Shown here one piece after another: positions 12,657-58,526 of a DNA stretch of 64,000 nt (positions are counted from its first letter, which is position 1; every line of letters starts with the position of its first letter). Origin of the DNA: Naegleria gruberi (taxonomy: Eukaryota). The notes beneath the pieces were generated by a model. The model worked only from the letters and a program-made list of their open reading frames with translations, had not been told where the DNA came from and did not search any database. A program made the translations under genes and the position numbers. The stretch lies in NCBI GenBank assembly GCA_000004985.1, contig GG738901.1. One strand, given 5' to 3'.

Positions 12657-14180
12657 ATGCTTTCAAACAACCTTCCCTCCACAGATGTCTCCACTCAATC
12701 AGTAGCAGCAGCAACAACAACTCTTCCGAATGGTTATTCTCGGGAGTGGCCAATCATCGTTGAAAATTTACAGAAAATTGCAAATAGAGAAAAAGTGTTT
12801 GGATCGATTGCAGCTTGGATTGAATTTGTAAAGGATTTGGATCAGAAAATTGTTGATGATTGTATGAATAATAATCGTGATGATGACGATGATGGTAGTG
12901 TTCAAGAAGTTTCCAGATCAACTGATTATCACTTTAGAAATTTATCATTCCTTTATAAAAAGATGAATATTTCGGACAAGAAGGAAGCAAAAGAACATTC
13001 ATTGATGAGTGAGAAGGAATTTATGGAAAAGGTTGTTCCAAAGATTGCTCAGTGGATTTTGGATTTGGAAAGAGAGTTTCCAAGTGGAAAAATTCCAGTC
13101 TTGATGATGAATGCATCTGGTGTTGTGAGATTGACCAAGAGACAGATCAGGTCGATTATGAGTTGTGCATTTTGTTGTTTATTCAGAGAAAGAGGAGATG
13201 TATCAAAGAAAAATATGGGTGTTTTCGAGTTTGGATTATTCTGGAGTGTTGCTTCACAAAATTTCCTAATGTCATTATTTCACTATTTTGAGAGGATGTA
13301 TAAATTAGACAATGATAGCTCAACAAGCAGTTCTTTGGATGAAATAATTTTATTTGAAAGGAAGGTTTTAAAGAACAATTATAGGCGATTCATAGAAGAG
13401 GAAATTTGCAAGAGTCAACAAAAGATGTGCCCTTTATTATTCAAACAAGGAAAGATTCAAGATAATCTTAATCACTTGATGGTTGATTTTGCAAATTGTA
13501 TGATTGGTGGACATGTGCTCGGTGGTGCAGTTGCACAAGAAGAGATTTTATTTGTTGAATGTCCAGAGCTTTTTGCATCCATTTTAATTTGCCCTCAAAT
13601 GCAAGTTCATGAAACTATTAAGTTCACAGGATTTGAGAGATATTCAAATTTGAAAGGATACATTAAGAGTATGACTTATGAGACCTATCTAGACAATCAA
13701 CCAGTAATCGAGAACGTAAGAAAGAATCAACTAATTGCTATGGATGCTCTGCAAGGAGTGGGAATTTTCCAATTCCAAAAAGAATTCATTCTTAGAGAAA
13801 TATTCAAAACCACCTGTGCTTTCACATCAAAAGAGAATGATTTCCTCAAAGATTCATCATCTGATTTACCAACATTAGAAAACGAACCTATTGCAAGTGG
13901 ATTCTGGGGCTGTGGAATGTTTGGAGGTGATAAGCAATTGAAAACAATCATTCAATGGTTGAGTGCTACTTTATGTAATAGACCTTCTCTAACTATTCAT
14001 CTCTTTTCACCTGAGGATGAGAAAATTGAACAAGATTTCAACACAAAAATACTTCCATTAATTGTGGAGAAGGAGTTAAGTCTTGGTCAAGTTGCAGATG
14101 CATTACTCAACACTTACCAATCAGTTAGAAAAACAACATCTTTTTCAATTTTTGAATTTCTTCATCAAAACTTCAAATAA
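12657..14180 (+). CDS. PARG: Poly(ADP-ribose) glycohydrolase
   Basis: A 507-aa single ORF starts at ATG after an A-run. The PARG catalytic signature is IGGHVLGGAVAQEEILFVECPELFASIL (GGG-x6-8-QEE class), and ASGFWGCGMFGGDKQLKTIIQWLSAT is also present. Confidence 0.9.
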   Translation: MLSNNLPSTDVSTQSVAAATTTLPNGYSREWPIIVENLQKIANREKVFGSIAAWIEFVKDLDQKIVDDCMNNNRDDDDDGSVQEVSRSTDYHFRNLSFLYKKMNISDKKEAKEHSLMSEKEFMEKVVPKIAQWILDLEREFPSGKIPVLMMNASGVVRLTKRQIRSIMSCAFCCLFRERGDVSKKNMGVFEFGLFWSVASQNFLMSLFHYFERMYKLDNDSSTSSSLDEIILFERKVLKNNYRRFIEEEICKSQQKMCPLLFKQGKIQDNLNHLMVDFANCMIGGHVLGGAVAQEEILFVECPELFASILICPQMQVHETIKFTGFERYSNLKGYIKSMTYETYLDNQPVIENVRKNQLIAMDALQGVGIFQFQKEFILREIFKTTCAFTSKENDFLKDSSSDLPTLENEPIASGFWGCGMFGGDKQLKTIIQWLSATLCNRPSLTIHLFSPEDEKIEQDFNTKILPLIVEKELSLGQVADALLNTYQSVRKTTSFSIFEFLHQNFK

Positions 14181-14327: not shown

Positions 14328-14400
14328 CGCCCCACGTGGGGCTCGAACCCACGACCGTTGGATTAAAAGTCCAACGCTCTACCGACTGAGCTAGCAGGGC
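14328..14400 (-). tRNA. tRNA-Lys(UUU): tRNA-Lys (anticodon UUU)
   Basis: The minus strand reads GCCCTGC TA GCTC AGTCGGTA GAGC G TTGGA CTTTTAA TCCAA CGGTC GTGGG TTCGAGC CCCAC GTGGGGC G. This is a canonical 73-nt cloverleaf with no encoded CCA. Confidence 0.92.
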
Positions 14401-24400: not shown

Positions 24401-26393
24401 ATAGTCGAGCACTTTACTTCCTCTCAACCTAGAGATAATGAGTTCTTTTGCTTTATTCCAGCCAAAATGCAAAGATTATACTTTTGGATTAGCTCAAGAT
24501 ACTCTTTACTATTTTCTCAGGTGGATATTTCATCAAGAAAGAGTGAGAAGGTCCAACAATTTTCAAATTTGACCAAGCAAGATGAGTCTAAATTCAAGCA
24601 AGTGAAAAATCATTTAGAAAGCATACACTCATCCTTTAATAATGAATTTATTGATAATCTATTTAATGGAATTCAATTACTTGACTTTGATGAGTGGACA
24701 TATTTCGAGTTAAATATCCAGGATGAAATGTGCCACAAGGTATTATCTTCCTACTATAAGAATCAATTCCTTCAATATAATACCCTACTCTCATCCAAAA
24801 TGTCCCAAAACTCATTACCGTTCATGCTTTCAACATTGTTTTCACAGGCATTGTCTTTTGAAAGGGAATGCGAGCATCATTCTATAATGATACAATCCCT
24901 GATTGGCTTGATTCCAAAATTCAGTACGAATGACCAATTTTCCAACCAAGACCAATTTTGGCTATTTAAATCATGGCTACAAGCTATGCAATCAAGTCAA
25001 GAACATTCGAGAAAATGCCTCTATGATTTCGTAATATTTACCGAGCATCTAGATCCAATTATTTATTATTTGGGAACATATTCACTCTCTGTATTCTCCC
25101 AAGATTTTGATTCGAATATCAAGGTTTTGAAAAATACCCTTTCTCAATTTTCAAAATCTTGCCTTATACCAATATCACATCTGCATCCTTGGCCAGTTTT
25201 GTTTACCTCAAAGATTTTGGAAGGATTATTTTCACTAGTTTCCATTTCTCTAACCTGGATACCAAAGAGAGATACTTCAACTAGGGAACTGAAACAGTTG
25301 TTCAGAAATTTCATAACAGAAAACGAAATACTCAAACTTAATATTACAAGACATCTAGGATTACATGTATCAAATTTGGAGACTTGGATTTTCAATTACT
25401 TTTCAAACTCTCAAACAAACAAGGAAGAACTTTTATATAATTCAAAGGAAACACTCAAGGAAATTGTATCAGATTTGGAAAGGGATTATAATTTTGGTTT
25501 AAAGTTTTTGGTAAAGGAAACTCCTCTTGCCTTACTGAACACAATGTTGAACAAAATTGATTGCAATTTTGGAGGTTTATTGATTTCAGACATGTTGATT
25601 TCACTATTTATTAGTCCAACAGCTTCGAAATATTTGGATCCATTCTTTGAATTGAAAGAAAAAACAATTGAACAGCTGCCATCTCAGATATCAATCCATT
25701 CCCAAACAATTCTTGATTATCTAGATGAAACCAAATTCTCAAATACCACAGACACCAATAGATTGTCCAAAATAATAGAACTTGTATTTGGGAGAATAAG
25801 TTCCTTACTGAACACTCAGGAATTGGGTAGAGAAATGGTTCGACTTTTTCCAACAATTACTTAAATCCCTTTTCATCCACTACATTTCATTCATTAAGAA
25901 AATAGAACACATCTCTACCGCAACAATTCCAAATCCTCAAATTAACACCATCCACCAAGATATTCCCAAAATTTTAAAAACTATTATCCATCAAATATTA
26001 GCAAGCAATCCGATTAATTTTATTGCCATTGCCGAACAAGCCATACATGGCAACATTTCAGGTTTGCCACACTTTGAAGAAGACTCCTACCAAAAAGCGG
26101 AATATCAATCATTAATTACCATAGCCCTAGTTCAAATAATTTTGGCAAATGATGAGTTAATAAGATGCATCCTTAATCCAGATAGTGAGTCTCCATGGCT
26201 CGCTTTAACAAACTCTGCTGAATTCCAAAATATACTTTCTCAATTATTGGAAAATATTAATTCAATGGCTCTCCATAGTGAGATTCTTGTAAATTCACAA
26301 AGAATCAAGCTCAACCGAATCACTCCAACAGCACTCAATTTGGCTAGAAAGTTAATTCAAAAGAAATTAATCTCTGAAAGCGCCATTATCTAA
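21467..26393 (+). CDS. Large (~1,625 aa) alpha-helical-repeat-like hypothetical protein; proposed 2 exons
   Basis: The ORF 21467-25864 stops, but the +1 frame stays open from 25812 to 26393 with no ATG (the tracked 'M' at 26064 is TTG). A phase-0 intron at 25784-25832 (GTATTT...branch-like TTACTGAAC...GTAGAG) joins ...SKIIEL to KWFDFFQQLLKSLF... An alternative is intron 25838-25898. No domain was recognised. Confidence 0.65.
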
Positions 26394-28076
26394 TCATCTG
26401 ATACAATCAAGTACATAATGTAGGAAATAATAAATATCAGCGAAGGTGTACTTGATTTGATCATTTCATAAAGAACTTTTCTATTCTTAAGATTAGAATA
26501 AATCACCATAAGGAATTGTCTAGGAGCAATTTGACCCTTGAATTTTCCCAACTTGTCATTGATCTGAATTTGCCTCACATCGCTTACACTAAATCCAAAT
26601 GCTGTCAAAATCCAATTAATCAAGGAAATGTATTTTGTTGCCTGAACTGTTTTTAACTCTGAAACTAAATCTGTTTTTGGATCATACTTCATGACAGTAT
26701 ATTGTCCATTGAAAAAGTTTGAAGGTTGTAACCAAATTGAAGGAGCATTTTGAATACTCTTTGTATGTTTTCTCTTTTGAGCTTCCATGAAAAAATAATA
26801 ACGACTATAAACTTCTGACATCATGGCTCTCTTCCAAATGAAAATGAGTCCCAAACAGAATAGACCAATCCAGAAAACATTGCTTTGTTTCCATCTATTC
26901 AATCTACTGGCAGTCAACCAAGAATAGAAAAATACAATGAGTGTAAAGTCCCAACTCGTTACAATACCAAATGAATATAATTCTGATGAAATTGGATACA
27001 AGAGTGCAGTACCAAAATTAGTCATGAAATCCAACAATAAATGAGAACTCAAGCAACATGCAGATAATGTTGTACAATGTGTAAAGCTGTTAAATCCATG
27101 CAAGCCCAACACTTTCTGAACTCCAAAACCAATGAGTGGGGATAATAATAAATTAATAGGCAGAGAATGTGAAATAGTTCGCCTAAATGTAAGACTATTC
27201 TTGTCACGTCTTTCAAGCATGGCTTTCCAATTTCTTCTTGCGTTAGTAACTGTTGGTTGAGTATCCTCAGAATCAGAATCATATTGAGATAAATTACTAG
27301 AGCTACCAGCAGGAGTCTGTGCTGCATTAAGTGAAGAACTACTGAAACTTGAAGTCATTCCACCACCAGAAGATTCCTCCTGTTTCTTATTTGTTAATGA
27401 AATAAAAAGCTCCCACAATCTATGAATTCTGTCAATCATTCTCGAAAATCCCTTGAAGAATGACAAGAAAAACGAAATGATGAATAATGCAATATCTACA
27501 TCAGGTAAATTAGCCAAAATCATTCCAACTACGTAATACTTTTGTTCAAAAGTCAAATGGGAGAAGAATCGTTTAATTCTCCTCAGAAATTTAAACATAT
27601 TCGTGCTCAACACTTTAAAGAATTGTTTGAGTGATGTTTTTCTCAATAATTGTATCTTATCCTTTCCCATCATTAATTTACTTGCTCTATAGAGTTTCAA
27701 TTATAATATTTGGATCATTATTTTCCAATCAAGGCAATACATTCCATTGTCATCATTATCCGATAACAATATTTAAATAACAATTAATAGTAAATTTAAA
27801 TAATAATATTGATGATAATAATAATAATATTATAAATTAAATTGATGATCATCAAACATACCCATTAGCAGCCATTACTCCTCCATCCACAAGTGATTTT
27901 CCAATCAAGTAGAGAAATTGTTGTTGATCGGAGGTGTGTTTCAAATGTTCACTGTGTTTGACCATTGGACTCTCAGGAATCATTCGAAATCTCTTCCCTT
28001 TATCCGATACAAAATTCCTCTCAAACAAGTATCTCGAAATGACATAACCAAATATTGAGTGAATATCTGTTAACAT
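26390..28076 (-). CDS. Multi-pass membrane protein related to YdjM/DUF457 membrane-bound metal-dependent hydrolases (2 exons)
   Basis: Exons are 28076-27862 and 27686-26390, with a 175-nt intron (GTATGT...CTATAG, phase 2) and a total of 1512 nt. Family-like strings are MLTDIHSIFGYVISRYLF, FRRTISHSLPINLLL and SSHLLLDFMTNFGTALLYPIS. The stop codon overlaps the convergent gene's stop, sharing CTAA at 26390-26393. Confidence 0.65.
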
Positions 28077-32623: not shown

Positions 32624-35600
32624 ATGTTGAACAATAAATCTGAGCGAAGTGGTGATGAAAAAGAGGAGGATCTTGTGATTCAGAATCCCTCTAACTGTAA
32701 ATGTAATAATCACAACAATGGTAAGCAGCATCTTGAAGGGACAAATTTAATGCAACAACCACAACCACTGTTGGATGATGATGTGAATGATATTCTTCAA
32801 TTATTAACAATAGAAAGTTGCAGTGGAGGTTGTAGCTTTGATTGTCTTAAATTCGAAGAGAAGGAAGCAGTCGAAGAGGATACCTGTAATCCAATGTCGC
32901 AACAACATCTTCCTTCCGATATCAAATCGGAACCAATTCTCCTACTGCTTACTGATAAGAAGGCAACATCAACAATGGATCACAACGTAAGTTATCATCA
33001 AACATGTAAATTAACGTGCCATTTGGGCGATTTGACTAATTCAGAAGTCGTATGCATCTAACAAACAAGGCGACAATTTTCATCATGAAAAAAGAACAGA
33101 CAATATCATCAACAAGAAGAACAAGGCTTCCTCATCATTAGGCAGTGCTTTTAAAGAAGATTTTGTAAATTTTGTTTCAGAATCCACAAGTTCCTCTTAC
33201 ATTCCGCAACAGCCATTCACAACATTATATTCGAAAAGAATGAAGGACGAAGAGATGGTGGAGAATAATCAATCTACTGTTAATGAAGATGGAATCAAGA
33301 CATCATCTGAAGCTAAACCAACACAATTTAACCACTCCTCACATCATCAAAGGCCTCATCATATTAACAAGGGTCTCGGAGAAGAACAACAATACAAATT
33401 TCCTTCATCTATTACACCACTTTCACTGGCCAATATTCATGCCAATGCATCGACTAACTTACTGCTAACTTCATCAACATTATTTAATTCTTCAAGTGAA
33501 TCACATGGTGGTGGAACCATTTCGAGAAGCTCCTCCAATACTTCAATGGATAGCTCCTCCTATTCACTCTTGAATAATCACCATCATCTAACCACATCTT
33601 CCTCACCCTCTGATGGTTTTCACTCAACTCTAAAATCCCTAGAAAATGTTCTCCCTCCATTCTTTACTCCATGCGTGCCACCTCATGCATCATTCAATTA
33701 CTATTCAGAACATTATTGGGGAGAACATCCCTTATCACTAACCTCCTTCTCTCCAATTCTTCATTATGAAAAGAAGTCATCTCTAACGATTATTTGTCGA
33801 TACACACCACAACAAACTAGGAATTCTCCAAGAAGGGAGAGACCTTCCTCTCAAAAAGAATTAATAGAGAATGAGATTTATTGTCTGAAAGTTTCACTGG
33901 ACAAACCATCCATTCCAAAGCTGGAAAGGGATGCAGAAATTTCTCGATTCTTGACCAATGAATTTTCTCAAGTGTTGGATCCAGCACAACAGGTTATTGT
34001 CAGTACTAAGGCCTATTTGTCTGATTATTTTATTCTCGTGAGGGAGTTTATTGATTGTGTTTCGTTGAGATCATTTATTGATAGATCGAAAACATATGCT
34101 AGAGCAGAACCAATTACTGATGAGAATTTTGAAACCTTAACAGATGATACTGTAACACTTCTCAATGAAGAACAACGAGTGAAAGAAAACATTACAATAT
34201 TGGAAAGTAATTTAACACTTGCTATTTCTATTTGTATGAGTGTTGCTCAACTGCATCACTCAAGAGTTTGTCATGCTGACATTAGGCCAGAAAATATAAT
34301 TGTAGAAGGACCTAAATGCAATATAAGATTGATTGATTTTGGAAAGAGTACATTCCTCCCTTTGGAGCATCCATTTTTATATACCGATAAAATTATTGGT
34401 AGTCAAATGTATTGTGCTCCAGAGGCAACAGGAAAGATTCCAAAACCAATAGGTTTCCACACTGATATATATTCACTTGGATTTGTTCTCTTTGAGTTAT
34501 TTTCCAAAGAACATCCATTTACCAAGTTTAGGACATTAGATTTCGTATTTCAACATTTGACTCAACAGCCAGAGTCCTTGTTTCAAAATCTAGCGAGAAG
34601 GTCTTTTATATCAGCCAATGAAGGAAACCTATTCACAGCTGCTACTAAAGCAATTTCAAGACTAATTACCAAAGCAATTCAAAAATCTATTGAGAAACGT
34701 TATTTGAGTATTTTTGGATTGAAACGAGATTTGGTCTACATACAGAATGCTATTCAACTAGAAGATATGGAAGCTCTTGAAAATTTTCAAGCTGGTATGA
34801 ATGATGTTCAAACAACTTTATCCATACCTTATGGTGTATATGGTAGAGAGGAAATTTTCAAAAAATTGGAACTGAAACTTGAAAATATGATGGAATCTAG
34901 TGAGCCAACGATTGTCCTTCTGGGGGGCTATAGTGGCATAGGTAAATCATGTATTGTTAAGGAGTTTAGGACAAGAAGTAAAACAGCAATACAATTCTTT
35001 GAGGCAAAATACGATCAACATATGAATGTACCTTACTATGCCATTATTTCCATATGTAAACAAATTATTGGCGACGTTCTTGGAGAATCTGAATCAGTGA
35101 TTAAGGATTTCAGATTCCAACTTGGTACACTTATCAATTCAGATCAATTAGAAATGTTGAGTGATGCAATTCCTGACATGTCATATTTATTTACAACTAA
35201 TGCAACCAAAAAGCATACCTCCCCATCAATGGGAGATCAGAATGGAGAGCGTATGAAGCTCTTTTCACAAGGAAGTAAGTAATATTTTGAATTTAACATT
35301 ATAACAATATTATATTGCTCAGTTATTCATCTCTTTAGTGTTTATACTCATTTAAAGAAAAAGAGGTTATGCATTTTCTTGGATGACTTGCAATGGACTG
35401 ATTTTGATAGCATGAAGCTATTGAAGGAAATTCTTGGAACTGGTTCTTGTGATACTGTTCCTCTTTTAATTATTGGAGCATATAGAAATAACGAAGTGGG
35501 AAAGGACCATCCTCTATTTTACTTTTTAGAAAATCTCAAACTTAAAGTGAACATTGAAGAAATTGAAGTTGTTGAGTTGACAGAAGATCAATCTAACATG

Positions 35601-38600
35601 ATTGTCTCAGAGTCTTTAAGGAAAAATAGAGCTGAAACAGAAGAACTAACCAAAATACTCTTCTCTAGGACGAATGGAAACCCCTTCTTTTTAAAGCAGT
35701 TATTGGCTGGTTTATTTAAGGACGGATCTATTTATTTCGATACTCAAACAGATACTATTACATGGGATAAAAAGAAAATAGAAAATGCAGAATACTCTGA
35801 AAATGTTATTGACTATCTCCTTGGACATTTGGAAAAATTACCAAAACAAACACAAGATATTCTTGCATTTGCTTCTTGCTTTGGAAATAAGTTTTCCAAT
35901 GAAGACATGCTCCACCTACTCAATCAGCAACAAGAAGAAAAGATAGACTTGATGCAACTTAAAGAAAGATTGAACTATGCGGTGAAGGAGGGATGGATTT
36001 CAAATATCAATTCTGGTAATTTACGATTTAATCATGATAGACTCCAACAAGCTGCTTATGAATCACTGCCTTTGAATGAAAGGTTGAGAATTCACTATAC
36101 CTATGGTAAGCAGCTTCTCAAAAAAGCAGAAGAAGATGATTCTTTGGAGGAACGTTTATTTGATATAGTTGTACAGTTAAATCACAAACATAATGATCCT
36201 GCTTTCTTGGAGAATAGAGATGAGAGAAGATTACTCATTGACCTCAATAATAGAGCTGCAAAGAAGGCTTTGGAAACATCATCTACAGATAAAGCCATTG
36301 GCTTTGTTTATATTGCAAGGCAAATTCTAGAACACGAACCAGACTGTTGGAGTGAAGAAACTTATAAGTTGGCTTTTGAGAGTTTACTAATTGTTGGTAA
36401 TTGTAACTATTCTGTAAATATAGAATTGGCAACCTCTCTATTCATGGAAGCTATTCAAAAAGCTCAAAACAAGACAGATCTTTATGAGGCATGCAACCAT
36501 GGATTGATGGCCTATCTTTCACAAGGAAAATATGAAGATGTGTTTAAAATTTTGACTGATCATGTATTTACTACATATGAAGAGTTGAATTTCCTTACTC
36601 AGGAGCATACTGTTGAATCCTTGACAACATGGATACTTAACAAGATGAAATACATGAAAGAACATGTGCTCGTTAATTTTACTCAAAAATCTGACATTCT
36701 CAATTTGCCAGATATTGATGATTTGGAAAAGTGGCATCTTATTTGTTTGCTCACTCAATCCTGTCCTGCTGTTTTTCATATGAATAACTCACTCAGCAAA
36801 CACTACTTTATGATTATGATATTAATATCGTCTGATATAGTTTTAAATAATGGCATTACTCCTCTTTCCCCATTGTTAATTTCAGTCTTTGCATGGTCTT
36901 GGTGTAATTTTGAGTTTTATCCTCAGATGAACATGTTCTTAGAGGCAGGATTAGAGATGGAAAAGACTAGATTCAGGAATGAGCATGAATTGGCAAGTTG
37001 CACATTGATGAAGTTGATGAGTTATTACTTTTCGCCAACAATTAACCCTCTTGAGGTGTGGAATATATCCGAGGAAGCCTTCTTATTGTCTGTGAAATCA
37101 AAGAACAAACACTATGGCGGTTTCTCTATTCTGTGGTATCCATTCCATCACTTATTCTATAGCCACGGAGATGTAAAGACTTCTATTGGATTGAGCTTGA
37201 ATTCAATTGAGATTTTCAAGAGAAATGGAAATGTTATGTTGATGGATGCCAGTAAAATGATACTGGAATTGAAATATGTTCTTTCAGGAGATGTAGACCA
37301 TTACCTGCCAACGTATGTAAGCCAAGTGAAGGAATATCCATTCTTTAGACAAATGCACTACTCGTTCAAGGGAATTTCACTCTATTTCCAAAATGATATT
37401 GAAAAATCTTTCAAGTGTATGGAAAAATCGTATGATTTTAGAGAAGACTCTGTTGGTATGTGTTCAAGCTGGATTGATTTAATCTTCCTAGGTTTAATCT
37501 CAGCTATCTTTTTGAGAAGTGCTCAAGAAAAGATTGAAAAAGCCCAAGAAATACTGAAATATTCTATAGAAAGATTGGAAATGATTTCCCAAGCTAATTC
37601 TTCTGTTTTTCTTGCTCCTTTGGAGTTCATAAGAGCCGAGACATTGTACTCAGAATATTGTAGAACAGGTGTCGAAAATACTAGAAAAATCATTTCTCAC
37701 TACAGAAAGAGTTATATTATGGCTGAAAAGGAAAGAAACACCTTTTTAGCTAGGCTGATTAATTTGAGAACAGGAGAGTTTTACAACAGTCTAGGTATGG
37801 ATGATGGTATTAGTGGAAACTACTTCCTTAGAGCTATGGAATCTTTTGAACAGTTTGGTGCTTCCATCGTTGTTGATTATATTTTGGAGAATTATTCAGG
37901 TCACATCGATGGCTATTCATCATTTAGTAATAGAAATCCTGAACAAGTATTCTCTAACACTTCTCTATCTGATGAAACAACAGATCACTCTCTTGCTGGA
38001 GTAACAAAGAGCAGAATTTCTGAATCAACAGAATTGGATTTTAGAGAGATTTTCATTTCAATTCTGCCAATTCTTTCAGAACAAACGTTATCACCAAGAT
38101 GTTGTTTGATTTTGAAGAGAGATTCAACAGTTTATGTAGATGCCGAATTTAATGCAGACCTGAATTCTATTGAAGCACTTTCGTCTACCAAACAATTCGA
38201 AAATAGTGATTTGGACAAATTTTCAGATTTATTCCCTCTCAAGATGATTCACAGAACTCTAAGATCCAGAACAGAGCAACAACTCGTATGGAATGACAAT
38301 GAGAAAGAGTATTACTTTGTGAAGAATGTAGTGGCCTCTGCTTTATCTATTCCTATCATGAAGAAAAAGACAGTCATAGGTATGCTTTTTATTATTATTT
38401 TATTTATATTATTTAATGTATTAAGGTTGTATATACTTGGAAAATAAGGAAACGAAGGATGTATTCACAACTGAAAAAATTAACCTTGCCAAACTTATCA
38501 TCTCGATCAGTTTGGACAATGCTGGAATTTTCACATCTATTAACAAATCCTATGCTAGGTTTTTACCTGCTGAATTCTTAAAGTTGCTTGGAAAGAGTCA

Positions 38601-39423
38601 CGTAACTAAGGTAAGGTTGGGCGATGCAGTTTCTAGAGAAATGACAGTGCTCTTCAGTGATATTTATGGATTTACAGAGATTATGGAGGGACTTTCTGCA
38701 AAGGATGGCTTTGCTTTTATTAATCTACTATTGAAGAGTATTGCACCTCCAATTTCAAGAAACTCTGGATTTATTGACAAGTTTGTTGGTGATGGAATAT
38801 TGGCATTGTTTATTGAACCGCAAGGAGCTGTCACTGCAGCTTTAGAAATGATTTCAGAATTGGAAGTTTTCAATAGTAGAAATAATACCAATGTAAAGTT
38901 GGGAGTTGGTTTGCATCATGGTATTGTTCAACTTGGTACGATTGGATATGAGCAACGATTGGATGCTACTGTTATTTCAGATACTGTGAACACAGCTAGC
39001 AGATGTGAATCTCTCACAAGAACTTTTCATTCACATATTCTAGTTACTAAACCAGTTATGGATGCTGTTACAGTGCCACACAGTGTGATAAGTACCGAGT
39101 TGGGTAAATTCATGCTGAAAGGAAAACACATACCTCATCAAATTTACAATATCGCTTCTAAATCATGGAAAGGAAGTGGTAGTGCTAAAGAATTCGCTTT
39201 ACTAAGCAAAGTTATTGATCTCTTCTCCAGGAGTGAATTTACCGAATCATTTGCCCTCGCAGAAACAATTCTCAAGAATACAAAGAACAATACCATTATA
39301 GCTGCATGCAACATGTATAAGGAAGCATCAACATTATACGGATCAGTTGTTTTACCAAGTGAATGGCAAGGTGAAATTCGGTTGACCAAGGATGGAGAAG
39401 TCAGAGAGTACTTTTCAAAATAA
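32624..39423 (+). CDS. Multidomain signalling protein: Ser/Thr kinase-like domain, AAA/STAND-type P-loop NTPase, helical/TPR-like region, GAF-like domain, class III adenylyl/guanylyl cyclase (4 exons, 2,215 aa)
   Basis: Exons are 32624-32986, 33045-35274, 35323-38379 and 38426-39423. The introns are 58, 48 and 46 nt (GTAAGT, GTAAGT and GTATGC ... AG), and the total is 6648 nt. Kinase strings are VCHADIRPENIIV, IDFGKS and MYCAPE. The P-loop is LLGGYSGIGKSCIV and the Walker B is LCIFLDDLQWTD. The GAF end, restored by splicing, is TVIGCIYLENKETKDVFTTEKINLAKLIISISLDNA. Cyclase strings are MTVLFSDIYGFTE, IDKFVGDGILALF and ISDTVNTASRCES. Confidence 0.85.
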
Positions 39424-39582: not shown

Positions 39583-42039
39583 ATGAAAAAACGACATTCA
39601 ACCTTTTCCACCACAATCAATCATCGAGATTTGATTAAATCATCTAATTTTAATTCATTATCTACTAGTAATATTCAATCATCATCATCACCAATATTGA
39701 GCACTACTTCTAGAAAAGGCTTCCGAGAACGACCACTCATCAAATTCATATTAAAACAACGTTCCAAACGATTGCAACAACAAGGCTCTAGTGAGTTTGC
39801 TGGTGCGGAAGTGGAAATTTTGAAGGCTTGTTGGAGAAAAATAGAGGAAGAGGAGATGAAGGACTATCGAGAAAATCTCTCGAATCGATTGGGGTTTTAT
39901 TTTGATGATGAGGAATTGTTGGCCATGTTCGGAAATCAATTGATGAAGGATGAAGAGGAACTACAGCAGAGGACGACAATGGATACTACCAACACTGAAC
40001 CAAGTTCGGCTGGTGGTGCTACTCTTGACAATTCTTCACTGAAGAGTGGTGACAGTGCTCGTTCATTGACAAGTTTCGGATCTGACTCGAAACTAAATTC
40101 GCCAATTAGTCCCAACCTCGACAAGAAGCATTTGCAGTCAACTTCATCGACCAAAAGCTCCACTTCATTTGCATCCTTCTCTGGTGCACCATCATCACTC
40201 ACACCAAGCCCAAACATTGAGGAGAACAAAAATCTTTCCTACCTCTACGATATTCATACTTTTCCTAGCAAGCTGAATCTGATACCAACCATGCATTATA
40301 ATGTGTTGGATGTTGTTGAGTTGTCCTCTGTACAGCAAATTGTAAATATAACAAGTCCTTCTTCGGAGATTGGGATACTTAAAGATTGTACAAATGATTC
40401 TTCTCCTACTGTAAATATTGAATCAACCACTTTTAGTCTCGAGATTTTAGATAGTTTTATTACTGTTGATTCTTTTGAAGATTTTTCAAATCCTTCATAT
40501 AATCCACTCAATATTAGACATTTATATTGTGATTATTGGTCCAACAAACTAGAATTCAAACAAAGGATCAGTAAATCTTCTCTTACTTCAAACAATAAGA
40601 AGGAAAATGAAAAATCAAAAAACTATATACCATTTGAAGAATTGGAAAAATGTAGAAATTGTACAGAACTCAAATTGAACAATAACAAGATTAGATCTCT
40701 AGATTCTAAACATTTTACCAATTTTGCACACTTGACAGAATTGAATCTATCTTCGAATAGAATGTCTAAAGCAAGACTGCCTGAGGATATTTTCTCACAT
40801 ATGCCACATTTGCAGAGGCTTTCTCTCGATTATATGGGTCTTAAGACTCTACCAAAATCAATTAACAAATTGGTAGAGCTTACCTACCTTTCACTTTCCT
40901 TTAACAAATTGAACACTTTCAACTTGCTACATGGAAAAGACAGACACTTGAATGATTTTTGGCCAAAATTGACCAATTTGGAGTACTTGAATTTGTCTGG
41001 AAATAGATTGAATAGATTTCCTTCAGAAATTTGTAATTGCAAATCATTGGAATTTTTGAGTTTGTCCAACAATAGAATAATTAACGAGATACCAAAGGAA
41101 ATTGAAAATCTCAAAAAATTAGCAATACTCTTCTTGAATGGAAACAAAGTTACTGCTCTTGATATTAATAGAAATTTGGAATTTTTAGAGAATTTGACCC
41201 ATTTGGAATTGGGTCACAATCCTAATATCCATGTGGTTCCACCTCCTGTTTACAATTTAACCAAATTAGAATCACTCTGTTTGAGCCATCTAACCATTAG
41301 TCATTTATCGGATGATATTGGAAAATTAAGAAATTTGACTCACTTGGATTTGTATGGCTCCAAACTAACTGGTCTTCCAAAGGGTATTTCACAGCTTATC
41401 AACCTTAGGAATTTGGATATGCGATATTGCAGAGGTATCAAGGAGTTCCCTATTGAATTGTTTGGTCAAAAAGTTTCAAGTAGCACTATCACTACTACCT
41501 CTCCAATGAAATCCCTTACTAGATTGAGTCTTAGCTATACAATGATAGAGAGCATTCCTGAGGATATTTCCTCTCTCCAGAGTTTACAAGCACTTTTGGT
41601 GAATGACTGTCCCTTGCTCGAAGAAATTAAGGGTATTGACAAGCTTGTCAATCTTGTAGAGTTTGACATCAGTCGTTGCATCTCCCTTGTTGAGCCTCCT
41701 TCTGATGTGTGTGAGAGAGGTCTTGCCCACATTAGAGGATATCTGAAAGAAAAGGACGATGGACCTTCTATTTTTTTAAAGTTTATTGGATCAGTATTTG
41801 GTGGAAATACCTCAAATAATTCCTCCACCAACAAGAAGAAACTACCTTCACCAATAGGCACAGAAAACAACCTCAAAGTGGAACACAATGAATTACTTGT
41901 TGCCTCACCAGTACCAAGCATTAATTCTGGAGATGATGATGGTGATAGTGATTCTGATGATGAGATTGGCGCATCTAAAAAGAAGAAACCAAGTCCAAGT
42001 GGCAGTACTGTCAAGTCATTATTTTCCTTTTGGAAATAA
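39583..42039 (+). CDS. Leucine-rich repeat protein (typical/SDS22-like LRRs, SHOC2-like array) with low-complexity N-terminus
   Basis: An 818-aa ORF starts at ATG after an A-run. About 15 repeats of the form LxxLxLxxNxLxxLPxxI run from ~residue 360. The tail is acidic and basic. Confidence 0.85.
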   Translation: MKKRHSTFSTTINHRDLIKSSNFNSLSTSNIQSSSSPILSTTSRKGFRERPLIKFILKQRSKRLQQQGSSEFAGAEVEILKACWRKIEEEEMKDYRENLSNRLGFYFDDEELLAMFGNQLMKDEEELQQRTTMDTTNTEPSSAGGATLDNSSLKSGDSARSLTSFGSDSKLNSPISPNLDKKHLQSTSSTKSSTSFASFSGAPSSLTPSPNIEENKNLSYLYDIHTFPSKLNLIPTMHYNVLDVVELSSVQQIVNITSPSSEIGILKDCTNDSSPTVNIESTTFSLEILDSFITVDSFEDFSNPSYNPLNIRHLYCDYWSNKLEFKQRISKSSLTSNNKKENEKSKNYIPFEELEKCRNCTELKLNNNKIRSLDSKHFTNFAHLTELNLSSNRMSKARLPEDIFSHMPHLQRLSLDYMGLKTLPKSINKLVELTYLSLSFNKLNTFNLLHGKDRHLNDFWPKLTNLEYLNLSGNRLNRFPSEICNCKSLEFLSLSNNRIINEIPKEIENLKKLAILFLNGNKVTALDINRNLEFLENLTHLELGHNPNIHVVPPPVYNLTKLESLCLSHLTISHLSDDIGKLRNLTHLDLYGSKLTGLPKGISQLINLRNLDMRYCRGIKEFPIELFGQKVSSSTITTTSPMKSLTRLSLSYTMIESIPEDISSLQSLQALLVNDCPLLEEIKGIDKLVNLVEFDISRCISLVEPPSDVCERGLAHIRGYLKEKDDGPSIFLKFIGSVFGGNTSNNSSTNKKKLPSPIGTENNLKVEHNELLVASPVPSINSGDDDGDSDSDDEIGASKKKKPSPSGSTVKSLFSFWK

Positions 42040-42137
42040 AGTGTTGAGTAAATAAAAACTGATGAAACATTTAGACATCACCAAATATAATGTCGTTTTT
42101 TCCCGTAAATGAGAAATATTTGCATTAAGAACAAGAT

Positions 42138-42209
42138 TCCCGTGTAGTCCAATGGCTAGGATACCTGGCTTTCACCCAGGAGGTCCGGGTTCAATTCCCG
42201 GCATGGGAG
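42138..42209 (+). tRNA. tRNA-Glu(UUC): tRNA-Glu (anticodon UUC)
   Basis: The sequence is TCCCGTG TA GTCC AATGGCTA GGAT A CCTGG CTTTCAC CCAGG AGGT CCGGG TTCAATT CCCGG CATGGGA G. This is a canonical 72-nt cloverleaf with no encoded CCA. Confidence 0.92.
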
Positions 42210-42214
42210 AATCG

Positions 42215-43740: not shown

Positions 43741-46563
43741 TTAAAGGTCATCATCTGATTCAACCTCTTCGACTCCCTCCACTATTGGTTCTTCTTCTTC
43801 TACAATCATAGGGCCACTTTGATTGTCAACTCTGGCTTTGGTGAATTTGTAGAGTTTGTCCAAGAGTGAACGACCTTGATCCCACCAAGAAATATCAACC
43901 TCATGATAGGTGCCACGAAGTGGATTGATAACTCCAATATTCTTAATTTCCATTCCATCCAATCTAGCCATGGCTGCATAGCAGAGTAATTGAATAATCC
44001 ACTCAACTTCAATATCTTGGGATACCGAACATTTAATATCAATAATGGTCTCGCCATCAATGATGATATCTGCCTCTCCAGTAACATGTTTTCCATAACT
44101 GAGACTTCTATGGGTATTAACTGAGCTTTCAGTTTTTTCTACAATAAATGGAACAAAGTGCTCTTGTAAATTATTGAACAGTTCTGTATAGTTTGGAGCA
44201 ATGTCCTTAATAAAGTCAAACTTTTTCTTTAGATTGGTATTGCCAAGATAGAGCATTCTGGTTCTTCCCTCTTTAACAACTGCATCAAGTTTGGAAATTT
44301 CGAATACACTTTCTAGAATATCAATTGACTCATAATTTGGATTTGTAAAAATTCTGTAAGCTGTTTTTAAACTGTCTACATAACCGGGTGGGAAGGCATA
44401 TTCTGTCATTACTGGAATAACCTCGAATGAAAATTGTCCCTTCTCCAATATTTTCTCGAAAGATTCAATAATCTCAGTCATGACTATCTTTTCATAGCCA
44501 TCAGTAATAGATTTTAACAAAGCTTTTGGAGGTTTTCCATTTCTCATCAACTGCTTCAATTTCTTTGCATATCTATTAAAGACCTGGATACTGCCTGTAT
44601 TTAATACGATTGCCTCGTTAATGAAGAGTTCAGTGCATGTATGACTAAAACCTCCTCCATTAGGTATTTTCTCAGAAATCATTCTACAAAATAAAGTATC
44701 AATAAAGTTTCCAAAGTCTGTAAACATTTGATTTTCGTAAACCACGTCACAGTATGCAAAGTCTGTATCCACAATTTTGGTTTTCGTAAATTCGATTTGT
44801 GGCAAACATCCTTCTTCCTTGAGTATTGTCATGAGTTCTCCATCAATATTACGAACCATATTTGTTACGGTGTATGGATTAATAGATGAGTCGGATGCTG
44901 ATCTTGGCTGTTCTGAAATACGCAAGTCTGTGGGACTATGTAATCTGAATACGCTACGATCAATCTCTGTTATATAACTCAAACAAGTTGCTGTCTTGGG
45001 GAGAACAATGTGTAACTCATCCTTTGCTCTGGTAACAGCCACATATAATACACGTCTTAGTTCCGCATCATTATCACCTTTCCATTTATCATTTGATGAA
45101 TCCACCAAGAAAACAATATCCCACTCCAAACCTTTAGACTTGTGTATGGTTGATAGGCAAACTTTTCCAGTTGTTGTGTGTCTTTCCATTTCCTTTAAAG
45201 ATTTTGATTTTTCCATAATAGTAATATGTGGAATGAAGAATTTAGATAATTGTTCCTCTACCTTATAGAGACCATAATTTGTTGGAGAAAGGATTGCTAT
45301 TCTTTCTCTTGGCACTCCACGTTTCAAATATTCTGATATTTTCTTAGCAACATACAAACCCTGGTTATCATTTACAATGATTGGTTTAAGATTAGATTCT
45401 CTTGTGGTTGTCATTTCTTTTGGAATATTATCTGGATTATTTCTCAAAATTGCATTTGCCACTTGCAAAATTTCTGGCGTACTTCTATAATTTCTAGTCA
45501 GTGTTAACAGCTTAGAGTTTGGATATTTTGAGTGAAAATTCAAAATATGTTCCACACTGGATCCTCTCCATGAGTAAATGTTTTGCGAATCATCTCCTAC
45601 GGCAATTATCTTGCATCCTCTTTTGTGAAACTCTTCAAAAATCTCTGCTTGAAAATTATCAATATCTTGATACTCATCAATTATGAGATACTTTTTCTTT
45701 TTACAAATTTCATCCGCAATTTCTGGATAATTCTTCATTAAGTTCCTCAATCTATATCCATATTCAATCACACAAGCTTGAGAATCAAAATATTGCCAAT
45801 ATTTCTTCAATGTCTTGTAAGCAAATGCATCAATGGTTCCAATAGTAAATTTACTCTTAACTCCAATACTGGCAAGCTTTTCCTTCATATCATTTGCTGC
45901 CAATCTTGAAAATGTTGTCAACATGATCTGATGAGCTGGAATTTTCAAATACTTTATCATGTAAACAATTTTACAAATAATGGTTGTTGTCTTTCCACTT
46001 CCAGCGCAAGCCAACACTAACAAGTCATCATTCACATCTCCAAAAACAACTTGCTTTTGTTCTTCACTCAAATCAATCTGTACATCATCAATTGTAAATG
46101 TTTTCATAATTTCCTCTTCGGATGGAAAAACAATTTCCTTCTTCTTCCTTACTCTTTTTACAGGCTTTGAAATTTCCTCATCACCTCCAAAATTAATTTC
46201 CGGCATTAAACTAATTGCCTCATTACTCATAGCATTAATGATTTCTTCCTTTTCTTGAGGTTGGTGAGTAGAAAATAATTCCTTCACCTCATCATCTTGT
46301 TGCTTCAAAGTCTGTTTCCTTCTCGTAGCATTATTAATCAAAGATTGAGAAAAACATCTCCTCATCATTACATGATTCAATAAAGTAGAGTTATTGGTTT
46401 TCAACAAGGCTGATGAAGATCCTGTCGGGAATGATTTATTTCCACCATTAATTTTAATATGATTAATTATATTATTGTTATTACTATTTAAATGATGTAA
46501 AGTTGAAGTGGATGATAATGTATTCAAGCGATAGAGAAGTGAATTGTGCTTGATGTTGCGCAT
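43741..46563 (-). CDS. UvrD/Rep/PcrA-type SF1 DNA helicase fused to a C-terminal PD-(D/E)xK (RecB/Cas4-like) nuclease domain
   Basis: A 940-aa intronless ORF. Helicase motifs are I ACAGSGKTTT, II YLIIDEYQD, III VGDDSQNIYSWRGS, IV RNYRSTPEI, V STIHKSKGLEWDIVFL and VI LYVAVTRAKDEL. The C-terminal string is GEADIIIDGETIIDIKCS...EWIIQLLCYAAM. The N-terminal ~100 aa are Ser/Asn/Arg-rich and may be a targeting sequence. Confidence 0.9.
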   Translation of the reverse strand: MRNIKHNSLLYRLNTLSSTSTLHHLNSNNNNIINHIKINGGNKSFPTGSSSALLKTNNSTLLNHVMMRRCFSQSLINNATRRKQTLKQQDDEVKELFSTHQPQEKEEIINAMSNEAISLMPEINFGGDEEISKPVKRVRKKKEIVFPSEEEIMKTFTIDDVQIDLSEEQKQVVFGDVNDDLLVLACAGSGKTTTIICKIVYMIKYLKIPAHQIMLTTFSRLAANDMKEKLASIGVKSKFTIGTIDAFAYKTLKKYWQYFDSQACVIEYGYRLRNLMKNYPEIADEICKKKKYLIIDEYQDIDNFQAEIFEEFHKRGCKIIAVGDDSQNIYSWRGSSVEHILNFHSKYPNSKLLTLTRNYRSTPEILQVANAILRNNPDNIPKEMTTTRESNLKPIIVNDNQGLYVAKKISEYLKRGVPRERIAILSPTNYGLYKVEEQLSKFFIPHITIMEKSKSLKEMERHTTTGKVCLSTIHKSKGLEWDIVFLVDSSNDKWKGDNDAELRRVLYVAVTRAKDELHIVLPKTATCLSYITEIDRSVFRLHSPTDLRISEQPRSASDSSINPYTVTNMVRNIDGELMTILKEEGCLPQIEFTKTKIVDTDFAYCDVVYENQMFTDFGNFIDTLFCRMISEKIPNGGGFSHTCTELFINEAIVLNTGSIQVFNRYAKKLKQLMRNGKPPKALLKSITDGYEKIVMTEIIESFEKILEKGQFSFEVIPVMTEYAFPPGYVDSLKTAYRIFTNPNYESIDILESVFEISKLDAVVKEGRTRMLYLGNTNLKKKFDFIKDIAPNYTELFNNLQEHFVPFIVEKTESSVNTHRSLSYGKHVTGEADIIIDGETIIDIKCSVSQDIEVEWIIQLLCYAAMARLDGMEIKNIGVINPLRGTYHEVDISWWDQGRSLLDKLYKFTKARVDNQSGPMIVEEEEPIVEGVEEVESDDDL

Positions 46564-46660: not shown

Positions 46661-48030
46661 TCAGCGTCTCTTGACTCTTATTTTCTTCTTCTTTGTAGTA
46701 GGTACATTATATTCATCGTCATCCTCTTTCATTAGTAAGGGAACTTCATCTTTCAAAGATTCTGCAACAATATTACTGAAAGATTTCTCAAACTGAACAA
46801 TAGATTCAGGTTGTTTTGGTACAGAGGATGACAAAGAAGGAGCCAAACTAGCTTCTTCTTTCGGTTCTTCTTCTGGTGTGGGTTTAGCAGAGATGCATTC
46901 CTTACATATATTGAATTTAATATCTAGTGGATAATCAAATACAAGTTGAGAAACAGCTTTGCTGATAGTAGTTTCTTTAAAATCTAAATTAGAAGGATTG
47001 TGTTTCTGGGTGAAAAATATTGGACTAGTGTCAAGTTGTTTACAATTCAAATCTTGTAAGGTAGATTCAATTTGATGTTCTGCAGTGATAAGGGATGTAA
47101 TATTCCTGAAATGAATGACTTTTTCAAAAGCATTTTTGATTCCTTGCATGTTTTCAATGAGACCTGACATGGTTGAGTATTGATCTTGAACAATTGCCAT
47201 TCTCTCTTGATGTTCTGATTGGCTTTTGTCAAGAATTTCTTTTCTTTTGTCTTCCACTTGTGCCAAATAGTTGTCAATCATAGTATTAACCCTCATTTCG
47301 TAAGTTTCTTGATTACTGACTAGTTTAGTTTGGAGAGAGCCAATCTTTTCCAATGCAACATACAAGAATTCAATATCTTGATCAACTTGCTCAATCTTGT
47401 TAGACATTCCTGCCTTAGCCTCTTCCATATGTTCATCAATTGGGACACATGTATGATTACTATGATTAGTTGATAAAGAACACAAATGACAAACTTATGT
47501 CTCTTACATTTTCCAACAGTTAGAATTGTTCCAAGTGGAGCTTTTTTATGAGAAGCAAAGAACTTGGGAGCATGAATGGATGTGAAACATTCCTCACAGA
47601 ATCTACTATTACAATCCTCACATTCAACTTGAACAATGTTAGTTTCACAATTGGCACAAGTTTCTCCCTTCTCCCTCTCCATCATATAATTTTCTACAGT
47701 ACTCTTGAGATCGTAATTAATAGGAAAGACACTTGGTACATCTTCAGAATGATTGACTTTACATTCCTTGTTGCAAGAGGGACAATTGAAACAAATTCCT
47801 TCCTTCTTGTTACTTTGATCACTTGTTGTTCCATACAATTTGTTGATCTTTGTTTGATTTCCCAGCACAGGAGCTTGAAGAAATGGTTCTTTGAGTTTTA
47901 ACTTTTTAAAATTGATATTTGCCATAATGCATCGGGTGCACATTGAATGACCACAAGGTAAAACTCTTGGATCTTGAAGAAGTTCAAAGCAAAACTTGCA
48001 TGAAAGTGATTCCTCGTCAATTACTAACAT
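46661..48030 (-). CDS. RING / B-box / coiled-coil (TRIM-like) protein; reading frame broken once inside the second B-box
   Basis: The RING is CKFCFELLQDPRVLPCGHSMCTRCI...CPSC. B-box 1 is CANCETNIVQVECEDCNSRFCEECFTSIHAPKFFASH. Then CKRHK (frame A) abuts VCHLCSLSTNHSNHTCVPIDEH (frame B, which opens at 47494), and a long coiled coil follows. ORFs 47320-48030 and 46661-47485 overlap in different frames, and no intron can fit. Confidence 0.7.
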
Positions 48031-57239: not shown

Positions 57240-58526
57240 CTAATTGCTTGTAATTTCATTAATCTTACCAACAAAGAGAACACTCTGAGTTGGAACGTGA
57301 TGCAAAATAAAAGCAAAAGGTCTGTCAGCAATGAATTCATAAACCTCCTCAGATGCAGCCCTTCTCTTTCGTTTACAAGCTACGGCAGTTGCAGCACTTG
57401 CCACTGTTCCTGACTCATCTACTTGAATGCATGCCTTGTGAATTATTTGACTGACACATACACCATCAACTTGTGGATTGGAGAGCATATTGGAAAAATC
57501 AGCATTGGTTGGACTAAACAATCTATTGATTTCGAATGGTTTCTTGGCTATAGTTGGAATGATATTGTCAAATTGCTTTTCAAATTTGAATTTTGGAATT
57601 TGAATTCTGTTCATTTTGACTGATTCACTTGGATTGAGTCGACTAATATCGGTCAACTTGGATTGAAGCCACTTGTTAAATTCTGTTTCGTTTTCTTCAT
57701 CAATCTCTAAATCATCATTTGGTTTAATAAATGTCATACAATATTCTTCATCTGTGTATGGTAATTGTAAAATTTGATAATCATCCATTTCTTCATAGAG
57801 GAATTTTGACTTGCAATCTTCCAAACTCATCATTTGACAGTTGCATTCTCCATTCAAGGTGTTAAATGATTTTTCAATAGTTCTATTCTTGTTAAATTGA
57901 TGTTTCCACTTTCCATTAAAGTAAATTGCATTTACAATGACCATAAGTGTGTCTGAATCCAATTTAGATATTAAATTCTTGATATTATTCTTAGTATTGG
58001 ATGCAACCCATGCATTGATATTCTTCACTTCTATATTGGCCATACCCTTAAAGTTTGCCAATTGAGTTTGAGAATCAAATTGGTCAACCAACTCATTAAT
58101 AAATTCATTCTTAACACCAAGAGATTTTTCCAGATAAATTCTATTGGCAATTGATAAAACGCTCTCATTTTGAACAATATTCTTAATCATACCCGAATAT
58201 TGCTTCAATTCACTTTCCTTCCATTTTTGGAATTGCTCAACTGCATTTTCCATTTTACAACTATTAAAACTTTCTCTCAAAAACAAGCCATCAATCATTT
58301 CCCTCAATGTTTCTCCACCTGTTCCCAACATGCAATTCATCATTGCAATATAAATCGAAAATGGTGAAATGATCAAATTTCCATTTCCATTTTCCTGCAC
58401 AAATTGACCAAACAATGCAGAGGAAAATTCATTCTGGGCCAACAACATGTTATTCTGTGCTTGTTTCTTATTATTGGAAGCATTGTTTCTAGTACTTGAT
58501 AATTTCTTACTGTTTACCTTGACCAT
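57240..58526 (-). CDS. Serpin (intracellular type) with polybasic reactive-centre loop
   Basis: A 428-aa ORF. Serpin strings are SPFSIYIAMMNCMLGTGGET, NAIYFNGKWKHQFNKNRT and FIADRPFAFILHHVPTQSVLFVGKI. The hinge and RCL read ESGTVASAATAVACKRKRRAAS. The N-terminus is hydrophilic, with no signal peptide. Confidence 0.9.
   Translation of the reverse strand: MVKVNSKKLSSTRNNASNNKKQAQNNMLLAQNEFSSALFGQFVQENGNGNLIISPFSIYIAMMNCMLGTGGETLREMIDGLFLRESFNSCKMENAVEQFQKWKESELKQYSGMIKNIVQNESVLSIANRIYLEKSLGVKNEFINELVDQFDSQTQLANFKGMANIEVKNINAWVASNTKNNIKNLISKLDSDTLMVIVNAIYFNGKWKHQFNKNRTIEKSFNTLNGECNCQMMSLEDCKSKFLYEEMDDYQILQLPYTDEEYCMTFIKPNDDLEIDEENETEFNKWLQSKLTDISRLNPSESVKMNRIQIPKFKFEKQFDNIIPTIAKKPFEINRLFSPTNADFSNMLSNPQVDGVCVSQIIHKACIQVDESGTVASAATAVACKRKRRAASEEVYEFIADRPFAFILHHVPTQSVLFVGKINEITSN

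Follow-up and report, generated by a model that had tools for sequence, protein, structure and literature searches.

Does the TRIM-like gene of Naegleria gruberi encode a complete RING/B-box/coiled-coil protein, or is it a broken copy of such a gene? The question arises from a stretch of 64,000 nucleotides (nt) of contig GG738901.1 (assembly GCA_000004985.1), hereafter the window, in which a gene on the minus strand between positions 48030 and 46661 changes its reading frame in the middle of its second B-box. The initial annotation of this locus had proposed a small out-of-frame deletion and left three possible outcomes: a pseudogene, an assembly error or two separate polypeptides. These outcomes are the alternatives which remain alive, and they are ranked here. 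Comparison with an intact ortholog demonstrates that 40 nt are absent from the window. We consider it probable (about 0.65) that this absence reflects a real frameshifting deletion and that the copy is a pseudogene or a null allele.

The first coding part occupies frame 1 from Met1 to Lys179 (47495..48030, minus strand) and is identical to exon 1 of the model deposited at NCBI. It encodes a RING finger, B-box 1 and the first two zinc ligands of B-box 2. In the list of open reading frames (ORFs), it belongs to ORF1, which extends from 48030 to 47320 on the minus strand and counts 236 amino acids (aa). The second frame lies on the same strand, between 47485 or 47494 and 46661 (274 or 277 codons), and carries the rest of B-box 2, the coiled coil and the C-terminal tail. 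B-box 2 is consequently split: its first two ligands, C175-K-R-H178 (the CKRH motif; 47497..47508, minus strand), are read in frame 1 while the last four, C-H-L-C-SLSTN-H-SN-H (CHLCSLSTNHSNH; 47453..47491, minus strand), are read in frame 2. The two ORFs and the split between CKRH and CHLCSLSTNHSNH had been described before, and both their coordinates and their frames are confirmed.

The frame of CHLCSLSTNHSNH can be reached from frame 1 by a −1 (or +2) shift. It contains a TAA codon at 47497-47495, directly upstream of CHLCSLSTNHSNH, and it overlaps the first frame by 175 nt. Beyond the break, frame 1 remains open for 58 codons (KFVICVLYQ...SKLN; 47320..47496, minus strand, stop codon at 47322-47320), and this out-of-frame read-through tail aligns to none of the relatives. 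The window is AT-rich (~33 % G+C). Given the base composition, an open frame of 277 codons after the break has a chance probability of ~7e-10, an improbability which identifies the downstream part as real coding sequence.

An intact counterpart is found on a 1,782-nt contig (L001) of an ENA metagenome assembly. The project behind it, PRJEB11402, is not mentioned in the literature searched. Along its entire length, which corresponds to 48515-46615, L001 is collinear with the window, and the collinear region takes in 490 nt of intergenic DNA upstream of the gene. In this upstream region the two sequences are 95.7 % identical; within the gene, identity is 98.5 % for the N-terminal coding part and 94.6 % for the C-terminal one, which contains the coiled coil. 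Collinearity and high identity together indicate that L001 is the same locus in a close relative. The encoded protein (P0002, 415 aa) is read from one continuous ORF, and its B-box 2, CKRH-KKDLDLI-C-KN-C-QVTV-C-HL-C-SLSTN-H-SN-H (CKRHKKDLDLICKNCQVTVCHLCSLSTNHSNH), displays the canonical eight ligands. Pfam recognizes this domain at residues 173-211 (zf-B_box, 38.9 bits), and the last four ligands encoded in the window correspond to residues 194-206 within that match.

When the window is aligned with L001, 40 nt are absent between GACATA and AGTTTGTCAT. The junction was placed at 47493..47496 (minus strand) by the DNA alignment (A1), by a script and by a global alignment; it shows 2 nt (AG) of microhomology and its breakpoint is ambiguous by 2 nt. 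The missing sequence (that is to say GAAGGATCTCGATTTGATTTGTAAGAATTGTCAGGTCACA, or a close variant of it) codes for KDLDLICKNCQVT and contributes 1 further nt; the zinc ligands C186 and C189 are among the residues lost. The proposal of a small out-of-frame deletion within B-box 2 is hereby substantiated by the ortholog. The loss of residues that it entailed is real as well, though its size is 13 codons plus 1 nt rather than the ~15 residues first estimated. Re-insertion of the 40 nt generates a single ORF of 469 codons with a complete B-box 2. Among the coding indels that distinguish the two sequences, this gap alone is not a multiple of three; the others (9, 6 and 147 nt) are all multiples of three and all located in the low-complexity tail. 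The missing segment was not found elsewhere in the window.

A comparison with orthologs and paralogs had also been recommended in the initial annotation, and in both cases the segment lost from the window is retained. Besides L001, the N. gruberi paralog XP_002671198.1 keeps it as CMKHGKDLDLFCMNDNEKVCSLCAISETHKNH, including the motif KDLDLFC. In an alignment with 17 distant relatives, C175, H178, C194 and C197 of B-box 2 are invariant and C186 is nearly invariant. As both the paralog and these 17 relatives retain the segment, it is ancestral, and its absence from the window is a derived deletion. Ligands 3 and 4 of a B-box 2, here C186 and C189, pair with the final two histidines in a cross-brace arrangement. 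Even an in-frame repair would therefore forfeit one zinc site.

Two other origins of the length difference were considered and rejected. The 40 nt could have been an intron of the other lineage, but none of the three possible placements provides GT..AG ends, and the segment codes in frame for conserved cysteines, in the paralog as well. Slippage between the two TGTAAGA repeats of the ortholog does not account for the event either, as these repeats are 33 nt apart and not 40.

A real deletion would have the following consequences. The loss of 40 base pairs (bp), with 2 bp of microhomology at the junction, would have taken out the central part of B-box 2, two zinc ligands included, and would have shifted the frame. 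Translation from the normal start would then give a 236-aa product composed of the RING, B-box 1 and 58 nonsense residues, the ribosome appending the out-of-frame tail to the truncated RING/B-box 1 product. The coiled coil and the C-terminal tail would be left untranslated, and the copy would be a recently inactivated pseudogene or null allele. As expected for a pseudogene, the lesion is disabling relative to the intact ortholog, and the intact state is the ancestral one. The pairwise ratio of nonsynonymous to synonymous substitution rates (dN/dS) between the window and L001 is 0.24 and ~0.4 for the two halves, with dS of 0.04-0.10, values which derive from few substitutions and carry no lineage assignment. 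With such ratios and with both halves otherwise undamaged, the lesion, if real, would be recent. A clean 40-nt loss in unique sequence with 2 nt of microhomology fits a deletion by end-joining or slippage better than an assembly error.

Several observations weigh against this interpretation. The deletion is attested by a single assembly. Neither half contains a second disabling mutation, which fits a recent lesion and equally well an artefact. Furthermore, a single intact ortholog was found, and it originates from a metagenomic Naegleria. Naegleria has been described as a heterozygous diploid (PMC9928731), so that an intact second allele may persist and the function would perhaps not be lost. 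Exact look-ups in an assembly collection with the helicase neighbour, ORF1, the ATG-started ORF2 and the NCBI model retrieved no second copy of the locus, and scans of JGI metagenomes with the intact protein and a conserved 24-mer retrieved no more alleles. A profile search of a word-indexed protein collection yielded almost no further relatives. On balance, the locus is regarded as a commonplace instance of a disabled copy within a known gene family, or possibly as a sequence error.

The public gene model bridges the break in a different manner. A search with a conceptual fusion of the two frames returned two close proteins, P0002 and the NCBI entry ‘transcriptional intermediary factor 1 alpha [Naegleria gruberi]’ (P0001, 444 aa). 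P0001 is the exact translation of 48030-47495 joined to 47459-46661. The model thereby removes a 35-nt ‘intron’ (GTTTGTCATTTGTGTTCTTTATCAACTAATCATAG; 47460..47494, minus strand) which has GT..AG ends and whose removal preserves the frame. The resulting protein reads ...CKRH-N-NHTCV..., and the second half of B-box 2 is discarded. In L001, the same 35 nt are in-frame coding sequence (VCHLCSLSTNHS) for four zinc ligands, and their removal would break the frame. In the window, the frame is restored only because 40 and 35 add up to 75 nt.

Two supported introns of the window serve as a reference for these splice signals; a search for further ones to calibrate them gave no other convincing case in the window. 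Both belong to a gene on the plus strand (33240-39423) whose three consecutive ORFs encode a protein kinase, an AAA_16 STAND-type ATPase, a long helical region, a weak GAF match and an adenylate/guanylate cyclase. The first (35275-35322, 48 nt, GTAAGT..CAG) has 19 % G+C and the second (38380-38425, 46 nt, GTATGC..AAG) has 11 % G+C. Removal of both generates one ORF of 2,029 codons, and splicing of the first extends the AAA_16 match from positions 2-103 of 167 (55 bits) to positions 2-167 of 167 (89 bits). The 35-nt stretch, with its GTTTGT donor and an exon-like 29 % G+C, departs from these two introns in composition, length and donor, and its counterpart in the ortholog is coding. In the literature, a mean intron length of 203 bp is given, and the lower limit set for N. 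fowleri was 30 bp (PMC8296547). Neither the intron-length distribution of N. gruberi nor heterozygosity at this locus was found in the literature searched. RNA-seq of N. gruberi exists under PRJEB23822 (PMC6142364). On sequence grounds, the annotated intron is probably a gene-prediction workaround and not a real intron. The main value of the present analysis is a correction of the annotation: the 444-aa public protein conceals a frameshift and is devoid of the family-defining domain. Counts of B-boxes made with P0001 will be wrong, and analyses which use it may take a dead or heterozygous-null gene to be functional.

Which explanations other than a real, inactivating deletion have to be weighed? 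The gene could be intact in the organism and the 40 nt lost only in the assembled sequence, through an artefact of assembly, cloning or consensus. Such an origin would agree with the undamaged state of the rest of the gene, in which both frames are open, dN/dS is below 1 and the other indels are in frame. It would also agree with the perfect 469-codon ORF obtained when the 40 nt are put back, and no independent sequence carrying the deletion was found. However, consensus errors of a multi-fold shotgun assembly do not typically take the form of a clean loss of 40 nt from unique, non-repetitive coding DNA. The junction, with its 2 nt of microhomology only, offers no repeat to mislead an assembler, and the same broken sequence underlies the public gene model. 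We therefore hold an artefact to be unlikely, albeit worth keeping in view. If the deletion is accepted as real, the 35 nt (47494-47460) could still be truly spliced, and the annotated 444-aa RING/B-box 1/coiled-coil protein without B-box 2 would be produced. Splicing would then represent a natural rescue of a frameshift, achieved by turning coding sequence into an intron. The uninterrupted ORF identical to the NCBI protein, the GT..AG ends and a branch-point-like ACTAAT motif 7 nt from the acceptor are consistent with it, as are the short introns of Naegleria (46 and 48 nt in the window, and the 30-bp minimum in N. fowleri; PMC8296547). This explanation is nevertheless quite improbable, as the stretch is constrained coding sequence with four zinc ligands in the ortholog, resembles neither of the two supported introns in its donor or G+C content and is shorter than both of them. 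The product would moreover retain just CKRH-N-NH of B-box 2 and would be unable to fold this domain.

The two frames could alternatively encode two functional polypeptides, namely a RING/B-box 1 protein (48030-47320) and a coiled-coil protein with an internal start, such as the in-frame ATG at 47428 of the downstream frame. Both ORFs are indeed long and open. In contrast, the ortholog, the paralog and all 17 distant relatives carry these domains in one chain, ORF1 ends in 58 out-of-frame residues without homolog, and no sign of an internal promoter was observed. The break furthermore halves a zinc-binding domain instead of falling in a linker, which makes two proteins very improbable. Programmed −1 ribosomal frameshifting, finally, would join the frames during translation, and it could draw on the −1 relation of the downstream frame and on the 175 nt of overlap. 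Its likelihood is practically negligible: no slippery heptamer of the type X XXY YYZ occurs from 47494 to 47320, the sole one in the gene being at 47863, joined frames would still leave B-box 2 two ligands short, and the ortholog needs no such event.

What would the undamaged gene encode? The intact form would be a 469-aa protein of the TRIM/RBCC family, comprising a RING, B-box 1, B-box 2 and a helical hairpin coiled coil of ~130 residues, without a substrate-binding domain thereafter. For the N-terminus of the protein, the gene encodes a C3HC4 RING finger of the kind found in this family, with the ligands C11-x2-C14 ... C26-x-H28-x2-C31-x2-C34 ... C83-x2-C86 (47773..48000, minus strand; supported by Pfam, an 18-sequence alignment (A2) and Foldseek). 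The search with zf-C3HC4 which the initial annotation had advised recovers this RING in ORF1 with 28.7 bits (cut-off 21), and zf-RING_UBOX matches with 30.1 bits (cut-off 25.2). A partly helical insert of 48 residues separates ligands 6 and 7. A comparable insert is present in all 17 protist and environmental relatives of the alignment, and it explains why the Pfam RING models match the first three quarters of the domain only. C83 and C86 are invariant among the 18 sequences. The fold matches the RING domains of TRIM25, TRIM2 and TRIM21 (Foldseek).

The second zinc domain, B-box 1, follows the pattern C125-x2-C-x8-C-x2-C-x4-C-x2-C-x4-H-x7-H161 (47548..47658, minus strand; Pfam, the same alignment and Foldseek). 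All of its eight ligands can be read in the sequence, and C125, C137, C140, C145, C148 and H161 are invariant in the alignment. In the structural model, this region matches the tandem B-boxes of CONSTANS and MID1 (Foldseek). The zf-B_box search, also advised beforehand, gave a mixed outcome. B-box 1 (residues 122-165) reaches 22.0 bits, under the cut-off of 24.1, and is matched by ANCHR-like_BBOX with 23.1 bits; neither ORF1 nor the NCBI model P0001 contains a B-box 2 recognized by Pfam, while the match in P0002 is the strong one reported above. The pattern which defines a B-box 2, C-x2-H-x7-C-x2-C/D-x4-C-x2-C-x3-6-H-x2-4-H, is not realized in one chain in the window, where the motif is split over two frames and 13 residues with two ligands are gone.

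Structural information on the coiled coil derives from an AlphaFold2 model of the intact ortholog, which was built on the 18-sequence alignment and has a mean predicted local distance difference test (pLDDT) score of 77.9. The model displays the RING, the two B-boxes, a helix of 108 residues (211-318), a return helix (324-340) and a disordered tail. In the window, the coiled coil (47051..47440, minus strand, frame 2) comprises the equivalents of the long helix (47440-47117) and of the return helix (47101-47051). This stretch is predicted with a pLDDT of 80-93. A helical hairpin of ~100 residues following B-box 2, as is typical of TRIM proteins, is thus seen in the model of the ortholog, and the window encodes the region out of frame with the RING. 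A phmmer search aligns residues 174-307 with TRIM3. A comparison of the model with the PDB (Foldseek) retrieves the RBCC region of KAP1/TRIM28, TRIM72, TRIM21 and the B-box/coiled coil of TRIM5alpha (template modelling (TM) score 0.67). The B-box 2 of TRIM5alpha superposes on that of P0002 with a root-mean-square deviation of 0.7-0.9 Å and 33 % identity. By sequence, the best solved relatives are TRIM3, TRIM72, TRIM28 and TRIM2. By analogy with animal TRIMs, the intact protein is predicted to be a dimeric RING E3 ubiquitin ligase.

The C-terminal tail (46661..47050, minus strand, stop codon at 46663-46661) is of low complexity and contains an acidic stretch and a basic end (KKKKIRVKRR). It has no Pfam domain match, and its pLDDT in the model is below 50. 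Between 46661 and 46905 (minus strand), identity with positions 1660-1737 of L001 is ~83 %, much lower than elsewhere, and the window has an extra Ser/acidic stretch of 49 residues. Judging from these sequences, the tail is evolving fast.

To which proteins is this gene related? When 1.8 billion representatives were searched exhaustively with HMMER, 2,033 matches were obtained at E ≤ 1e-3, among which 118 at E ≤ 1e-10. The nearest named relatives are from Phalansterium and Pelomyxa (Amoebozoa), the glaucophyte Cyanoptyche, Euglena and a diplonemid; further matches are from unplaced eukaryotes, environmental contigs and vertebrate TRIMs. A core of RING, B-box 1, B-box 2 and coiled coil is common to the relatives. 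The initial annotation had presented the RING/B-box/coiled-coil order as an architecture usually discussed as metazoan. The order itself is present, while its restriction to Metazoa does not hold, as non-animal TRIMs have been described (PMC3503706) and the nearest relatives belong to Amoebozoa, Euglenozoa, a glaucophyte and environmental eukaryotes.

The protist RBCC proteins include Phalansterium solitarium EP01116_P000196, Pelomyxa schiedti KAH3746276.1 (annotated as ‘midline 1’), proteins of Cyanoptyche gloeocystis, Euglena gracilis, Artemidia motanka and environmental eukaryotes, and the N. gruberi paralog XP_002671198.1. Their alignments extend from the RING through the coiled coil, and the E-values, for the search space of 1.8 billion proteins, are 1e-20 to 1e-27. 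Every zinc ligand is conserved, and the long RING insert is the same as in the Naegleria protein. However, identity is limited to 20-28 % (44 % over the B-boxes for the paralog), and all of them are uninterrupted. Many of them add C-terminal fn3, filamin, TLDc, F5/8-C, Ras-like GTPase or SPRY domains which are absent in the Naegleria protein.

Animal TRIMs with two B-boxes, such as TRIM28/KAP1, TRIM24/TIF1-alpha (class VI), TRIM3/TRIM2 and TRIM72, share the domain order and spacing of the intact form. By the standard of these proteins, the B-box 2 of the ortholog is canonical (C-x2-H-x7-C-x2-C-x4-C-x2-C-x5-H-x2-H), and the long helix and return helix of the model resemble their coiled coils. 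In contrast, identity is 13-25 %, the Naegleria RING has the 48-residue insert before its last cysteine pair, and the Naegleria protein is devoid of a C-terminal PHD/bromo, NHL, SPRY or filamin region; in the window, moreover, B-box 2 is broken and the chain is interrupted. The PHD finger and bromodomain of the TIF1 family (TRIM24/28/33/66) have no Pfam match here, and the tail is a region of low model confidence. As these domains are lacking, the public name ‘transcriptional intermediary factor 1 alpha’ is an over-annotation.

Outside Metazoa, the RING/B-box/coiled-coil order was reported for the TRIM37-like proteins of Subfamily A, which occur among others in excavates (Marin 2012; PMC3503706). 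A MATH domain is characteristic of this subfamily and almost all members have a single B-box (PMC3503706). Dictyostelium DdTRIM is another non-animal TRIM37-like protein (PMC5758549). The Naegleria protein differs by its two B-boxes and by the absence of a MATH domain, for which no match was obtained in ORF2, P0001 or P0002. The order is therefore not confined to animals, as already documented for TRIM37-like proteins (PMC3503706, PMC5758549). With an intact ortholog and relatives in Amoebozoa, Euglenozoa and a glaucophyte, the order with two B-boxes appears widespread outside animals, beyond the TRIM37-like focus of the literature searched. On the strength of these protist sequences, two-B-box ligases (RING/B-box 1/B-box 2/coiled coil) may form an old pan-eukaryotic family.

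The top Foldseek matches are PCR4 and PCR5 of the pre-conoid ring of Toxoplasma gondii (PDB 9ya0, chains AA-AD), which are also significant by sequence over the tandem B-boxes. However, they are structural components of the apical complex, and only their B-boxes and helices take part in the match (TM ~0.2), without a reported match of the RING. This likeness hints at B-box/coiled-coil proteins as cytoskeletal building blocks in protists.

Other genes of the window can be briefly described. The downstream neighbour of the TRIM-like gene (43741-46563, minus strand) encodes a 940-aa UvrD/Rep-type superfamily 1 helicase with a long C-terminal half devoid of domains, with a spacer of 97 nt only between this gene and the TRIM-like stop codon. 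Three further regions show unusual reading frames. Between 855 and 2633 on the plus strand, four open frames (855-1367, 1330-1974, 1923-2315 and 2316-2633) overlap or abut in different frames, with one weak intron candidate of 41 nt (1888-1928); they may belong to a further gene with a broken frame or represent several small genes. Between 61038 and 63760 on the minus strand, the overlapping open frames 63760-62453, 62523-62062 and 62093-61038, the last of which encodes a leucine-rich-repeat protein, lie in three different frames. No AT-rich GT..AG intron joining them was found there, and they are either separate genes or the result of further frame breaks. Between 50121 and 51437 on the minus strand, frames of 286 and 153 codons share the same frame and are separated by one stop codon (50582-50580). 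No Pfam domain was matched in the upstream part, and the arrangement may represent the end of a gene followed by a chance frame, or an in-frame nonsense codon.

Genes for tRNA-Lys(UUU) and tRNA-Glu(UUC) are present, the tRNA loci being 14328-14400 (minus), 42137-42210 (plus) and 9895-9964 (minus). A third tRNA-like match is weak (38.3 bits) and was detected by Rfam only, not by ARAGORN. The remaining genes encode a poly(ADP-ribose) glycohydrolase, a serpin, a YdjM-like membrane protein and two leucine-rich-repeat proteins, at 12657-14180 (plus), 57240-58526 (minus), 26390-27700 (minus), 8324-9808 (plus) and 39583-42039 (plus). The coding density and the short introns of the window are those of a small eukaryotic genome.

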